Shown one piece after another: positions 6,819 to 15,331 of a DNA stretch of 64,000 bases. The stretch is from a phage. The DNA is taken from sequence record PZ445443.1, one strand, 5' to 3'. Under the pieces are notes generated by a model. It did not search any database, was not told the origin of the DNA, and was given only the letters and a program-made list of their open reading frames with translations. The translations under genes and the position numbers were made by a program. Each line of letters opens with the position of its first letter. Position 1 is the first letter of the stretch.

Positions 6819-6846
6819 TTGACACGCTGCAAAATTCAAGTAAACT
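6819..6846 (+). promoter_or_regulatory. sigma70-like promoter (TTGACA-16-TAAACT) with upstream A-tract
   Basis: Hexamers plus poly-A UP-like element; followed by GGCGGGAaacaTCCCGCC hairpin. Confidence 0.5.
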
Positions 6847-6891
6847 AGGCACAAAAGGCGGGAAACATCCCGCCAACACAGAGGAAAAGCT

Positions 6892-7287
6892 ATGAATAAG
6901 AACGTACGCCGCATCATGAACGAACTGGCAAACGATGAAAAAATTATTGACATGCATTTGGTCAACATTTGCCGCCGTTGTGTAACATATAACAACCGCG
7001 CCGCAAAAGCGCGTGAGATGAACGCAAAAGGCACCTTAAAGCCCTTTCAGGTGGTTGTAAAATCTATAACTAATGCAGCAGGCCAGGCGCATGATCACAA
7101 CAACGAGAGCACTAATATTGATCCGTCTTACGTAATGAAACGGATCCGGACTTGCAAGAATAAAGAGCAGGTGTATAACGTCATAGATTGGCTTGATTCC
7201 ATGGGCGACGTGGTTTATAATAGGTTTTCTGCAGCTATCGAGATCCAGCTTGACAGGTTGGACGGGAAAGTACTAAAAACTTATTAA
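6892..7287 (+). CDS. hypothetical protein
   Basis: ATG with GAGGAAAAG RBS; 131 aa. Confidence 0.6.
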   Translation: MNKNVRRIMNELANDEKIIDMHLVNICRRCVTYNNRAAKAREMNAKGTLKPFQVVVKSITNAAGQAHDHNNESTNIDPSYVMKRIRTCKNKEQVYNVIDWLDSMGDVVYNRFSAAIEIQLDRLDGKVLKTY

Positions 7288-7289
7288 GC

Positions 7290-7335
7290 TTATTTTTAGA
7301 TGGCCTTGACTCCAGGGCCATCAATAAAGTAAACT
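7290..7335 (+). promoter_or_regulatory. repeated intergenic hairpin-promoter cassette, copy 1
   Basis: GATGGCC-TTGACTCCAG-GGCCATC hairpin with TTGACT in loop followed by TAAACT; near-identical copies at 7921 and 11641. Confidence 0.45.
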
Positions 7336-7488
7336 AACCACAGTTAAGCGGAAAAGGGGGGCTTGAAGATGAGTACTACACGCCAACACACAAAGGTAAC
7401 TATTATCGTTTGCATCATTGGTTACATCCTGGCGCAAATGTTGATGGGTAGCGCCAATGATTTCGCAAAATTTTTCTTAAACTTTTAA

Positions 7489-7516
7489 TTGACAAGCTAA
7501 CTTAAATCAGTATAAT
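7489..7516 (+). promoter_or_regulatory. sigma70-like promoter (TTGACA-16-TATAAT)
   Basis: Consensus hexamers upstream of CDS 7570. Confidence 0.5.
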
Positions 7517-7569
7517 ACTAAGCACATAAACGGGAAAACTTCCCAGAACACACAAAAGGAGAAAACATT

Positions 7570-7920
7570 ATGAATACTTCCATCACTATGACCACCGAAG
7601 AAAAAGCCCTGCAGATCGCCGCTCTGAAAAAACAGATTGCAGAACTGGAAGACAAGATCGACAATTTTGAAATCGACGAAGACAAATACGATGATAAATA
7701 TGATGAATGGTTGGACGAGATCCACGGCGAAATTATGATCGGTTGTATCTCTTTCCTCCCTTCACGTATCCTTAGGGAGCTGGATCCTATCGCTTACCGT
7801 TGCGGCTTTAGCGATTATATTGATAGCCTAGATATTGAAGATGACGAAGAATACCAGGAATTGCAGACAGAGCTTGAAGAAGCAAAAGAAGAGCTTGCAG
7901 AACTGGAAGAAAACGAGTAA
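7570..7920 (+). CDS. highly acidic coiled-coil protein
   Basis: ATG with AAAGGAG RBS; D/E-rich 116 aa. Confidence 0.6.
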   Translation: MNTSITMTTEEKALQIAALKKQIAELEDKIDNFEIDEDKYDDKYDEWLDEIHGEIMIGCISFLPSRILRELDPIAYRCGFSDYIDSLDIEDDEEYQELQTELEEAKEELAELEENE

Positions 7921-7968
7921 ATTTATTTTTAGATGGCCTTGACTCCAGGGCCATCAATAAAGTAAACT
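7921..7968 (+). promoter_or_regulatory. repeated intergenic hairpin-promoter cassette, copy 2
   Basis: Same 46-48 bp element as 7290-7335. Confidence 0.45.
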
Positions 7969-8009
7969 TTACACTGTTAACACTGAACTAATACAGAGGA
8001 GTTAAAACC

Positions 8010-8255
8010 ATGGCAGCACTAATCACCAAATATTATGCCCCTACCAACACCAAAAGCGCCCGTATCATGGTAAAAGGCTTCGGACGTAAAAAGGTTTACA
8101 CCTGGGATTATTCCCTAGACATGGAAGACAACTACACCAACGCAATGACCGATTTTATTAATGAACTAAATAAGCAGATCTTGACAAGTTATAAAGTGAC
8201 AGATATTGCTTATATAGGTGAAGGCGGGATCTGTTTTGTGGGCATTGTGAAATAG
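8010..8255 (+). CDS. hypothetical protein
   Basis: ATG with GAGGAG RBS; 81 aa. Confidence 0.55.
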   Translation: MAALITKYYAPTNTKSARIMVKGFGRKKVYTWDYSLDMEDNYTNAMTDFINELNKQILTSYKVTDIAYIGEGGICFVGIVK

Positions 8256-8300
8256 TTATTTTTTCGGTGGTCCTGGCTGCAGGGCCATCTATAAAGATAA
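8254..8300 (+). promoter_or_regulatory. variant of the intergenic hairpin-promoter cassette
   Basis: T-run, GGTCCTGGCTGCAGGGCC hairpin, then TATAAAG; diverged relative of copies 1-3. Confidence 0.35.
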
Positions 8301-8329
8301 TTTATTAACACCATGAAAGGAGAAAGTAC

Positions 8330-8683
8330 ATGATCAGCGGGGCTAGTTTTATTATTGGCGCTATTGCTACGGCTTTAATTGTAAACAAGATCCAGGATAA
8401 AAAGGAAAGAGGAAGTACCGCCCTTGCAGAATATCCATTTTGGACATTTAACGATAACGAAGATTATATTATAAAGTATAAAAATAAAGAGGGTGACCAA
8501 GTAACACCGCGACCGATCCCAGCTTACAAGATGCAGGAAACACTATACCGCCTGGAGGCGGGGGGCGCAAAAATTGTAGACTTTTGGGGATACGACCACA
8601 CAGATCAGGAAGTTATAAAGCGCCGTATCCGGGCTATTCAGGCCAATATTGAAGTTAGCAAGGGGGGAATATATGAAAATTAA
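8330..8683 (+). CDS. membrane-anchored protein
   Basis: ATG with AAAGGAG RBS; N-terminal hydrophobic segment. Confidence 0.55.
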   Translation: MISGASFIIGAIATALIVNKIQDKKERGSTALAEYPFWTFNDNEDYIIKYKNKEGDQVTPRPIPAYKMQETLYRLEAGGAKIVDFWGYDHTDQEVIKRRIRAIQANIEVSKGGIYEN

Positions 8684-13656: not shown

Positions 13657-13854
13657 ATCTTGACAATAGTTTATTACTTGATAGACTGTATTTCGTAGGG
13701 CGGGGCAATAAGGCAACGCCCATTAATGATGGTAGAATCATGTTAGATAAAATTTTCACGGTTGTAGTAGTTGGCCTGGCATTATAGGTTGGAGTGGTTG
13801 CAACTATGGCTAACATGATCCTATCTTCCCATGGTATCGGTTAAGGTGAATCAA

Positions 13855-14070
13855 ATGATCACGAATAAGACAGGTAAAACGGAATTCTTGCGCGGCTTGC
13901 AGATCGGCAAGCCAGAGATCTGGTATTGCACTAAAACACCACGTGACGAAATGAAAGACTTCACCGCCACGCTGCAACGGGTAAAGATATCCATCACGCA
14001 GAAAAAGGCCTTGATAGTGGTGGAAGGTGAGATCCCTCAAACCGTTGTTATAGTTGAGCGTACAGCATAG
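13855..14070 (+). CDS. hypothetical protein
   Basis: ATG 13855 with AAGGTG RBS (alternative in-frame ATG at 13831); TTGACA promoter at 13660. Confidence 0.45.
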   Translation: MITNKTGKTEFLRGLQIGKPEIWYCTKTPRDEMKDFTATLQRVKISITQKKALIVVEGEIPQTVVIVERTA

Positions 14071-14161
14071 TTTAATTTATAGCGATACCTGAAAATTAAC
14101 CAATAAATCATAAACAGGCGGTTACCGCCGCCTTAAACGTAGCAGAAAGAGGCTAGACACA

Positions 14162-14446
14162 ATGAAAAAGATGATCGCAGTAGTTGCCCTGGTTGTTGGA
14201 CTTAATGCACCTGTAATGGCTAAAGAGCTGGCAAAAGAGGTTAATCTAACGGATATCCATGCCGTCAATCAAATCGGGGTTACTTATCGCTTATGCCTTG
14301 CCGCTAAAACTTTTAATGACGGTACAACAGAGTACTACGGATTCGAAGGTATCCGGTGCGGTGAGCTTGCTCGCGACCTTAAGGAAGATCCAGACCTGGA
14401 AGATCTGCCCATCACCGTAAACGGTAAAGCTTACGTAAACCGTTAA
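14162..14446 (+). CDS. secreted/periplasmic protein (signal peptide)
   Basis: ATG with AAGAGG RBS; N-terminal MKKMIAVVALVVGLNAPVMA signal-like sequence. Confidence 0.55.
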   Translation: MKKMIAVVALVVGLNAPVMAKELAKEVNLTDIHAVNQIGVTYRLCLAAKTFNDGTTEYYGFEGIRCGELARDLKEDPDLEDLPITVNGKAYVNR

Positions 14447-14448
14447 CC

Positions 14449-14583
14449 ATGAGAAAGATAATCATCACCTTGGGGATTGTGGCGGGATCGCTGGCGCTCT
14501 TTCCCCTTATGGTTAGGTATGTGCTGATCAGTATTGTCCTGGTAGTCAGTGATCTATTGGAAACGGTTGGCACCTTGTTTTAA
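14449..14583 (+). CDS. small membrane peptide (44 aa)
   Basis: ATG 2 nt after upstream stop; hydrophobic; not in ORF track. Confidence 0.35.
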   Translation: MRKIIITLGIVAGSLALFPLMVRYVLISIVLVVSDLLETVGTLF

Positions 14584-14595
14584 AGAGCGGTAAAA

Positions 14596-14787
14596 ATGAA
14601 TATCGAACAAGTTAGAAAAGTATTAGCGGTACTGCGTTATCATAATCATAGAAAGGTCATAGACGATCCTGATTATGTTGATTCAAGCCTGGAAGGGGAT
14701 ACACTACAAGCTATAAGTAACATGCAAGAATTGCTAAAGCGCATGACAGAGAAAAACCGACCGGACTACATAGGCGAAAAAATATAA
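14596..14787 (+). CDS. hypothetical protein
   Basis: 63 aa ORF followed by terminator. Confidence 0.45.
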   Translation: MNIEQVRKVLAVLRYHNHRKVIDDPDYVDSSLEGDTLQAISNMQELLKRMTEKNRPDYIGEKI

Positions 14788-14802
14788 TATTTATAAACTA
14801 CA

Positions 14803-14832
14803 AAACAGGGCTTGCAATGGTCCTGTTTTTTG
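14803..14832 (+). terminator. intrinsic terminator
   Basis: CAGGGC-ttgcaatgg-TCCTG hairpin followed by TTTTTTGTT. Confidence 0.55.
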
Positions 14833-14915
14833 TTATACTTGTTTCACGGCAGGCACCTGGCGACGGGTGGAGACAATCACCGGGCCTGCCTGTCATATAA
14901 GAACTATAAAAACCG

Positions 14916-14944
14916 TTGACATCTGCCATGGGGTGGGGTAACAT
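14916..14944 (+). promoter_or_regulatory. sigma70-like promoter (TTGACA-17-TAACAT)
   Basis: Hexamers upstream of CDS 14999; 5' UTR hairpin GGGCA-aaag-TGCCC. Confidence 0.5.
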
Positions 14945-14998
14945 TTATCTTGAAGGGGCAAAAGTGCCCACACAACAACCAGGAGAGAGGAAAACACT

Positions 14999-15271
14999 AT
15001 GTCAAGCTGGATTAATCAAGAAGTCGAATCACGTTTTAATGCTATTTGGGATCTCATCGAAAAAGAGGACGGAACATCAAGCCCCTACCTCAACAATTTG
15101 GAATTCCATTTTGTGGAAGCGATGAACGCAGAACATGATCACGAAGGTGGCGCGGATGAGTTCGCTAAAGGTTATGGCTTTAACAATGCCAACGAAATGA
15201 TCGAGGCGGTAGTACTCCAGGCTGAGGAAGATTATCAATTAAAAACGCTTGAATTCTGCCGCCATAAGTAA
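14999..15271 (+). CDS. hypothetical acidic protein
   Basis: ATG with AGGAGAGAGG RBS; 90 aa. Confidence 0.55.
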   Translation: MSSWINQEVESRFNAIWDLIEKEDGTSSPYLNNLEFHFVEAMNAEHDHEGGADEFAKGYGFNNANEMIEAVVLQAEEDYQLKTLEFCRHK

Positions 15272-15331
15272 TAAGATAATGACACGGGCCAAAAGGCCCA
15301 CTAATCAGAACCGCACAAAGAGGTAAACATC

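Follow-up and report, generated by a model that had tools for sequence, protein, structure and literature searches.

Promoter-phased G/C hairpins in the leaders of small, putatively early genes of a Vequintavirus, and their possible role at the mRNA 5' end

The 64,000-nucleotide (nt) stretch of phage DNA analysed here (sequence record PZ445443.1; the whole stretch is referred to as the window) derives from a Vequintavirus (rV5-like). At approximately 1–18.4 kb it carries a + strand block of small, mainly hypothetical genes, the counterpart of rv5_gp171-186 within the long transcription unit 10-1-238-164 of rV5. The subject of this report is a cassette that recurs in this block, in which a sigma70-type promoter is followed by a short G/C hairpin and an A-rich leader with a ribosome site. 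The 9.1-kb region concerned was matched by 250 phage records, the best of them Escherichia phages EdH4, PMBT16 and vB_Eco_Alma, all Vequintavirus, with approximately 95% identity over its full length. From the consensus sigma70 promoters, and by analogy with other large virulent phages, the genes of the block are presumed to be early.

Hairpins were detected by a scan for perfect G/C hairpins and by promoter-anchored folding. Promoter matches had a hexamer score of at least 10 of 12, and the 25 nt past each -10 element were searched. As a control, 100 dinucleotide shuffles of the same leader were used. Six hairpins had been listed in a first-pass annotation as 5'-terminal features of early transcripts, downstream of the -10 element and ahead of the ribosome site. 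All six were confirmed to exist, their coordinates having been 0–13 nt off, and the list was extended by those at 7531–7546, 10095–10114, 13214–13233, 13698–13721, 14956–14969, 12560–12573 (degenerate) and 12898–12914. The proposed location at the transcript 5' end was partly supported: most sites lie as described, whereas the hairpins at 14116 and 12898 have no recognisable promoter and that at 15286 has a weak one. The features are as follows, with the -35 and -10 hexamers separated by the spacer length, free energies (ΔG) in kcal/mol and, in brackets, the number of shuffles that reached the hairpin.

6819–6891, + strand: cassette P6819, -35 element TTGACA at 6819–6824, -10 element TAAACT at 6841–6846; hairpin GGCGGGAaacaTCCCGCC at 6857–6874, ΔG -12.8 (0 of 100); then an A-rich leader with a ribosome site and ATG at 6892.
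7489–7569, + strand: cassette P7489, consensus TTGACA-16-TATAAT; weaker hairpin CGGGAAaacTTCCCaG at 7531–7546, ΔG -4.0 (0 of 100), the worst-phased case at 15 nt past the -10 element.
9341–9425, + strand: cassette P9341, TTGACA-16-TATACT; hairpin GGCGGGAAaacTTCCCGCC at 9379–9397, ΔG -13.1; leader and ATG at 9426.
10058–10138, + strand: cassette P10058, TTGCAA-16-TATATT; hairpin GGGGCGAGatgaCTTGCCCC at 10095–10114 with one G·U pair, ΔG -13.6; ATG at 10139.
11353–11439, + strand: cassette P11353, TTGCAA-16-GATAAT; hairpin GGGGAGacaCTCCCC at 11391–11405, ΔG -9.0 (1 of 100); ATG at 11440.
12519–12605, + strand: cassette P12519, TTGCAT-16-GATAAT; degenerate hairpin GGGGCtatGCCTCC at 12560–12573, ΔG -4.9 (10 of 100), not significant in the window; the stem seems better matched in most relatives.
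12898–12914, + strand: promoter-less intercistronic hairpin GGGGCCgaaaaGGCCCC without a U-tract, 7 nt past the upstream stop codon and 31 nt before an ATG.
13176–13256, + strand: cassette P13176, TTGACA-16-TAGTAT; hairpin at 13214–13233 with core GGGGCaacaaGCCCC at 13216–13230, ΔG -11.9 (0 of 100).
13443–13518, + strand: cassette P13443, TTGACA-16-TAAAGT; hairpin GCGGGAAtacTTCCCGC at 13483–13499, ΔG -9.8.
13660–13739, + strand: cassette P13660, TTGACA-16-TAGACT; hairpin GGGCGgggcaataaggcaaCGCCC at 13698–13721, ΔG -13.4 (0 of 100), with the same sequence in phages ESCO25, VEcB and UAB_1.
14116–14133, + strand: intercistronic hairpin AGGCGGttaccgCCGCCT without a promoter; the ATG at 14162 follows 28 nt downstream.
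14916–14998, + strand: cassette P14916, TTGACA-17-TAACAT; hairpin GGGCAaaagTGCCC at 14956–14969, ΔG -6.8 (3 of 100).
15249–15331, + strand: weak cassette, TTGAAT-17-TAAGAT at 15249–15277; hairpin GGGCCaaaaGGCCC at 15286–15299, ΔG -9.2 (0 of 100); leader ending in CACAAAGAGGT and ATG at 15332.

Seven of the promoters (6819, 7489, 9341, 13176, 13443, 13660 and 14916) follow the pattern TTGACA-16/17-TAnAnT with upstream A/T runs. In the block as a whole, the leader hairpin was matched by at most 3 of 100 shuffles at 11 of the 17 sigma70-type early promoters, and at 10 of the 17 its free energy lies between -6.8 and -13.6 kcal/mol; the folding z-scores of three leaders were -4.8 (P6819), -5.0 (P9341) and -3.2 (P11353). 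Such a hairpin accompanies 10 of 17 early promoters as against 1 of 16 elsewhere in the window (Fisher p = 0.002), the lone non-early instance being a true terminator, and only 2 of 31 chance promoter matches on the antisense strand carry one.

The most informative result of the analysis is the phasing of the hairpins to the promoter, which was determined for the window together with 13 related loci. The relatives were drawn from GenBank phage records; a protein-anchored search of IMG/VR gave two close relatives only. In this set, all perfect GC hairpins detected within 25 nt of a -10 element begin 6–14 nt past it, with a mode of 10, and 57 of 69 instances begin at 10–12 nt, a pattern that holds genome by genome; because orthologues are among them, the 69 instances are not independent and a formal p-value overstates the evidence. 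In the cassettes of the window, the sequence between -10 element and hairpin differs and the spacing stays at 8–12 nt (15 nt at P7489), while the distance from hairpin to ATG ranges over 17–34 nt. The hairpins reach 28–35 nt past the -10 element and therefore lie inside the transcript whatever its exact start. The start itself was assumed to be the eighth nucleotide past the -10 element, as in the annotated starts of T7 A1–A3, and a pyrimidine at position 7 followed by a purine at position 8, which is the geometry of the annotated A1, A2 and A3 starts, was found in 8 of 10 cassettes. With this start, the predicted transcript would have an unpaired 5' tail of 2–5 nt (median 3), and the hairpin would begin at approximately +3 to +5. 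Such tight phasing supports a role linked to the 5' end.

Phasing to the promoter and not to the start codon would also suit an effect on initiation, whereby the G-rich initial transcribed sequence and the nascent hairpin would adjust promoter escape, or keep the polymerase from backtracking, where promoters are very strong, RNA stability being secondary. Strong early promoters of T5 and T7 share a purine-rich downstream region that affects late initiation steps. In the hairpins studied here, the G-rich arm comes first (basal pair G-C in 24 cases vs C-G in 2), and cassettes of VEcB and of jumbo phage A4 start with ATCGAGAG(C/G)GG, which resembles the T7 A1 initial sequence ATCGAGAGGGA. The constant retention of the complementary C-rich arm is left unexplained by such an effect, as are the promoter-less hairpins, and we regard it as very unlikely to be the main function. 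The likeness to T7 A1 and A2 extends to promoter geometry, in which the -10 element is followed by a discriminator of 7 nt with C as its last base and then by a purine start. RNAs from the annotated A1 and A2 starts (T7, L022, 99–143 and 227–271) fold with stem-loops at +2 and +1, and the A1 initial sequence ATCGAGAGGG recurs at predicted cassette starts in VEcB and A4. However, the T7 hairpins are longer or irregular, do not form a repeated cassette and reach shuffle z-scores of only -2.4 and -1.6. The stem-loop of the T7 gene 10 leader is comparable, and the stability of T7 early mRNAs is usually credited to RNase III processing.

Comparison with relatives indicated what is kept at these sites. 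The same cassette stands before most small early genes in five other groups, represented by Phapecoctavirus ESCO25, Justusliebigvirus VEcB and UAB_1, Certrevirus DU_PP_IV, ChuuTotoro (a Serratia phage) and the jumbo Asteriusvirus A4 (355 kb); its typical form in relatives is TTGACA-N16/17-TAAGAT-gtatcaca-TAGGGCGGGAAtagTTCCCGCTC-acaacagaagagaaa-ATG. The stem classes include GGCGGGAA/TTCCCGCC, GGCGGCA/TGCCGCC, GGCGGCGGA/TCCACCGCC and GGGGCG/CGCCCC, among others, and those of the window are unrelated in sequence (GGCGGGA, GGGGAG, GGGCA, GGGGC, GGGGCGAG). In orthologous genes of Phapecoctavirus and Justusliebigvirus, the hairpin is kept 20–30 nt before the start codon with its stem sequence replaced, as at the membrane-protein gene at 10139, whose orthologues in ESCO25, VEcB and UAB_1 have different hairpins in the same place, and at the secreted-protein gene at 14162. 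At the latter, ESCO25 carries GGGGCGgtaaCGCCCC where the window has the hairpin at 14116, so the stem sequence has been replaced and the structure kept. Promoters may be present or absent at orthologous hairpin sites; in place of the promoter-less hairpin at 12898–12914, for instance, the ESCO25 orthologue has a full promoter and hairpin cassette. Since stem lengths and arm spacings vary, and loops vary or invert, the common denominator is structure and not sequence. Among close Vequintavirus relatives, changes fall mainly in the loops; some extend the stem, as does a double change from aa..aa to gg..cc at P7489 in one relative (L008), or turn G·U into A-U. The retention of hairpins with changed sequence in distant relatives supports the 5'-end role.

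A covariance model and a covariation count were dropped, given that the 3' arms fell out of register when the cassettes, with their unequal stems and loops, were aligned with MAFFT. An alignment selected for hairpins would, moreover, be circular; the evidence used instead comes from shuffles, phasing and the comparison of orthologues.

Past the hairpins, the leader is A-rich and unstructured (52% A, 13% T). When whole leaders were folded, the hairpin formed an isolated module and the ribosome site was open, as much as in hairpin-free leaders. The conserved leader reported in the first-pass annotation was recovered to the extent that ACAAAGAGG, with one mismatch allowed, is modestly enriched in the window (32 matches vs 19 ± 4 expected). 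As this sequence also precedes non-early genes on the other strand, it is mostly the general ribosome-site consensus of the phage. No U-tract follows the leader hairpins, and a terminator scan of the + strand flagged none of them, while the same scan recovered canonical T-run terminators at 10533, 11302, 12435, 14802 and 16180. In vB_Eco_Alma (L001, OV101294.1), two leader hairpins are nevertheless annotated as "terminator" (844–868 and 3359–3380), a label that the P9341 hairpin bears in that phage; lying 10 nt downstream of a -10 element and lacking a T-run, they probably reflect a systematic annotation artefact of the phage group. Rho-independent terminators do share with the leader hairpins a short G/C-rich stem-loop, and an identical sequence serves as a terminator in many other phages: GGCGGGAA-N3-TTCCCGCC occurs in 115 IMG/VR stretches, with at least five T within the next 8 nt in 81 of 116 matches, so that most copies are terminator-like. 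Promoter-coupled copies free of a T-run were found only in contigs as long as rV5-like or phi92-like genomes. The leader hairpins differ from terminators in having no U-tract, in lying downstream of a promoter and in being followed by a ribosome site within 5–25 nt.

A function as terminators of antisense transcription was considered as well. Minus-strand flags at several hairpins stem from the A-rich discriminator, and this reading was ruled out by the poor U-tracts at most sites and by the absence of minus-strand genes or promoters from the region.

Hairpins in other positions relative to a promoter were observed both in a relative and in the window. In DU_PP_IV (L007, a Pectobacterium phage, Certrevirus), GGGGCC-N4-7-GGCCCC hairpins lie inside the -35/-10 spacer of early promoters at 3865–8404, and some promoters also have a hairpin beginning 8–11 nt past the -10 element. 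Within the subfamily, the stem-loop has moved with respect to the promoter. In the window, a 45–60-nt repeat, ATTTATTTTTAGATGGCCTTGACTCCAGGGCCATCAATAAAGTAAAC, occurs at approximately 7285–7347, 7919–7980 and 11640–11702, with a variant near 8255–8300. Its copies are at least 90% identical and conserved in relatives, and they contain a 7-bp stem, GATGGCC/GGCCATC, around a -35-like TTGACT, with TAAACT 18 nt further on. The repeat looks like a combined stem-loop and promoter, nearer than the leader hairpins to the literal layout of the promoter-early stem-loop (PeSL) cassettes of other phages, and it does match the stem-loop placement of these.

PeSL cassettes have been described in the T4-type phages RB49/phi1, PST and nt-1 (Arbiol et al. 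2010, PMC2839356; Comeau et al. 2014, PMC4122927). Both they and the present cassettes comprise an AT-rich tract, a strong sigma70-like early promoter, a stable stem-loop of a G-run and a C-run, and a ribosome site; both stand before small orphan genes in a variable early region, are mutually similar, and contain the indel ends of close relatives. PeSL stem-loops, however, are placed upstream of or within the transcription start, or at most immediately ahead of it, and have been classed as terminators, whereas the leader hairpins begin 9–12 nt past the -10 element, are predicted to be transcribed as the 5' end of their own mRNA and have no U-tract. The lineages differ too, the leader hairpins occurring in Vequintavirinae, Stephanstirmvirinae and Asteriusvirus, and PeSL cassettes in T4-like phages. 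What is new is a PeSL-like cassette in other phage lineages, whose stem-loop now sits at a fixed place inside the transcript. Among the features listed in the rV5 genome paper are 33 promoters and 20 terminators, with leader hairpins left unmentioned, a 2023 Vequintavirus paper deals with promoters and terminators only, and a literature search on rV5-like phages found neither a transcriptome nor a description of leader hairpins.

By this kinship, the hairpins might act on transcripts arriving from upstream, either by attenuating or terminating read-through or, after cleavage in the leader, as 3' hairpins that shield the upstream mRNA from 3' exonucleases, their presence in the transcript of their own promoter being incidental. 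PeSL stem-loops of T4-type phages are reported as effective terminators (PMC2839356), and the T-run-bearing copies in IMG/VR and the labels in vB_Eco_Alma point in the same direction. The promoter-less hairpins at 12898 and 14116 sit just past stop codons, and the spacer hairpins of DU_PP_IV, along with the window repeat over TTGACT, indicate that stem-loop position can shift within a group. On the other hand, every leader hairpin lacks the U-tract that marks the canonical terminators of the region, an efficient terminator at approximately +25 would abort the transcript of the cassette itself, and a 3'-end role predicts no phasing of 10–12 nt to the -10 element. We therefore consider action on upstream transcripts unlikely.

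The loops are of 3–5 nt and variable (ATGG, TGG, TAG, AAC, ACA and others). At the orthologues of the 9379–9397 hairpin they read aac, gtt, aca or aaa. That loops differ, and even invert, among close relatives speaks against a loop-specific form of the regulator site suggested in the first-pass annotation. The hairpin and its flanks could still be recognised as a whole by a protein, such as an early-shutoff or processing factor encoded by the phage, an RNA-binding protein of the host or an accessory factor of RNA polymerase that works on the nascent transcript in the manner of N at boxB. Pointing that way are the motif TAGGGCGG(G)AA..TTCCCGCY, which is conserved in Phapecoctavirus, Justusliebigvirus, Certrevirus, a Serratia phage and the jumbo Asteriusvirus, the G-first polarity and the confinement of the element to the early region. 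But the stems of the window share no sequence, the loop changes just described include a reverse-complement flip at a single orthologous site, neither a boxA-like partner nor an Rfam match was found, and cassette spread with gene conversion explains the similarity equally well; recognition by a protein thus appears quite improbable. With the lambda nut boxB site bound by N, the leader hairpins share a short hairpin, an A-rich loop and a promoter-proximal position in an early leader. They differ in having no GNRNA-type pentaloop and no boxA, in occurring once per small gene and not per operon, and in their strain-variable loops. No boxA was seen beside the hairpins, no purine-rich pentaloop is conserved in them, and a comparison with Rfam gave no meaningful match. 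Candidate sites for CsrA, Hfq, boxA or RNase III were rejected by eye (no consistent GGA in the loop, no GCUCUUUA, stems too short).

Between the window and its close relatives L017, L019, L009 and L001, the loops of the 9379–9397 and 6857–6874 hairpins differ, in some cases by exact reverse-complement flips (AAC vs GTT; AACA vs TGT plus 1 nt), the hallmark of a palindrome at which the template was switched or the sequence inverted.

When eight relatives were each aligned with the window, the ends of indels and replacements fell at cassettes or G/C hairpins in this small, descriptive sample of breakpoints. The open reading frame (ORF) of 45 residues at 13519–13656, which is found in some relatives only, is flanked by P13443 and P13660; L017 has a single cassette there, with breakpoints at 13480–13513 and 13682–13789. 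A further pair of breakpoints lies at 13721/14092, the former relative to L009. L009 also has an insertion inside promoter P9029, and breakpoints were placed at 9034/9051 as well. In L002, the leader at 15300–15335 is duplicated around an extra gene. A deletion of 15635–16181 joins two GGGGC..GCCCC hairpins. Given their mutual similarity, the cassettes would double as recombination sites, at which small early genes may be gained, lost and swapped.

Such findings would also suit an element that acts as DNA, be it a palindromic operator for a dimeric repressor over +1, a cruciform or a functionless recombination scar. The palindromes overlap the usual position of repressor binding, breakpoints lie at the cassettes, and the loop inversions indicate that the DNA hairpin forms at least occasionally; G·U and A·C mismatches are, furthermore, about equally frequent in the stems, as DNA symmetry predicts. 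Conversely, the variable arm spacing and stem length, together with the lack of a common half-site in the window, misfit a single dimeric repressor, and the central part is self-complementary too, which an operator does not need. Stems of 5–9 bp are short for cruciform extrusion, and the persistence of the hairpins across subfamilies, despite altered sequence, speaks for selection on pairing. A DNA-level element is accordingly judged highly improbable.

A short ORF at 13740–13787 downstream of P13660 ends in TAG after 15 codons, and its homologue in ESCO25, VEcB and rV5_ev158 has 34 codons; it may be a pseudogene or a variant of the strain, or may reflect a sequencing error.

Phasing, pairing kept despite sequence change, the missing U-tract and the open ribosome site together find their best explanation in an RNA hairpin that adjoins the 5' end of each early mRNA. 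We infer that the hairpins are a 5'-proximal RNA element that limits 5'-end-dependent decay, and favour this reading tentatively. In order, each cassette would consist of an A/T-rich upstream tract, a sigma70-type -35/-10 promoter, a discriminator of approximately 7 nt ending in a pyrimidine, a predicted purine start, 2–5 unpaired nt, a G/C hairpin of 5–10 bp with the G-rich arm first, and an A-rich, U-poor leader with an AGAGG/GGAG ribosome site. The hairpin would fold in the nascent early mRNA beside the 5' triphosphate end and restrict the access of RppH and of the 5'-end sensor of RNase E. The U-poor leader, covered by the initiating ribosome, may add to the protection, so that each short early mRNA would receive a standard decay-resistant 5' end with its ribosome site unoccluded. 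RppH and RNase E need at least two unpaired 5' nucleotides and prefer at least three, and a 5'-terminal stem-loop blocks RppH (PMC8833179).

Several points weigh against 5'-end protection. A stem-loop behind four unpaired nucleotides barely obstructs RNase E (PMC11194081), and the predicted tail of 2–5 nt is borderline in that it lets RppH and RNase E act, if less well. The tail length in turn presupposes that transcription in this phage group starts at the positions predicted from the T7 geometry. The hairpins at 12898 and 14116 are promoter-less, and orthologous sites occur with or without a promoter, so that the hairpin need not always be 5'-terminal. A significant leader hairpin is missing at six of the 17 early promoters. 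Within the stems, G·U and A·C mismatches number 16 vs 12, which gives no evidence for folding of the sense strand. Neither the G-first polarity nor the near-identical GGCGGGAA..TTCCCGCC stem in unrelated phages is explained by end protection alone, and an initiation effect, a binding factor and cassette spread are candidate explanations for them. In view of these weak points, our confidence in 5'-end protection is held slightly short of an even balance.

As a test of strand asymmetry, the count of G·U vs A·C mismatches was set aside as uninformative, the G·U cases being mostly of one inherited type.

A functional likeness to known 5' stabilisers exists, and the concept as such is not new. The stabilising stem-loops in the 5' untranslated regions of the E. 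coli mRNAs ompA and papA (Emory et al. 1992, Arnold et al. 1998, as cited in PMC3997798) likewise combine a hairpin close to the 5' end, whose sequence is immaterial, with an efficient ribosome site after it, and they act through the dependence of RppH and RNase E on unpaired 5' nucleotides. They concern single genes with mapped ends and measured half-lives, in contrast to the leader hairpins, for which ends are predicted and which accompany approximately ten promoters per genome. The corollary that pairing and not sequence should matter agrees, at the level of sequence comparison, with the unrelated stems at the same position and with the orthologues of new sequence.

A bolder extension, to which we attach little probability, is that the phased 5' hairpin is a "self" mark that spares phage early transcripts from a phage-boosted, 5'-end-dependent decay of host mRNA, or else that the cassette is recognised by a conserved factor, of host or phage origin, that governs early-gene expression; in either case it would be a mobile cassette spread by horizontal transfer among unrelated large coliphages (Vequintavirinae, Stephanstirmvirinae and the jumbo Asteriusvirus). 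Srd of T4 stimulates RNase E. The rV5 paper reports a homologue of it, gp11.

The cassette would provide a rule for how rV5-like, phi92-like and 121Q-like coliphages, which are large and used therapeutically, build dozens of small early transcription units. Its recognition would correct a recurring annotation error, namely that leader hairpins are called terminators, and extends the idea of PeSL as mobile regulatory cassettes past T4-type phages, with the stem-loop as part of the mRNA. If the hairpin indeed stabilises or marks early mRNAs, the cassettes would be ready-made compact expression modules for phage engineering and a natural system for the study of 5'-end-dependent decay during infection.

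Further features were observed elsewhere in the window. A cluster of seven tRNA genes at 60743–61555 comprises Arg-TCT, Tyr, Ser-TGA, an odd call whose anticodon has 4 nt, Thr, Met and Pro. Near the divergent junction at approximately 56 kb, the 17-bp palindrome TGTCCGT-N3-ACGGACA is present in four tandem copies, 21–22 bp apart, at 58276–58361, followed by an AT-rich stretch; this arrangement resembles an operator or iteron array. Palindromes of the forms GCCACA-N4-TGTGGC and GGCACA-N5-TGTGCC lie near minus-strand genes at 34863–34878, 47985–48000 and 27482–27498 (minus strand), the copy at 34863–34878 within the -35/-10 spacer of a promoter, and may be sites for a regulator of middle or late genes.

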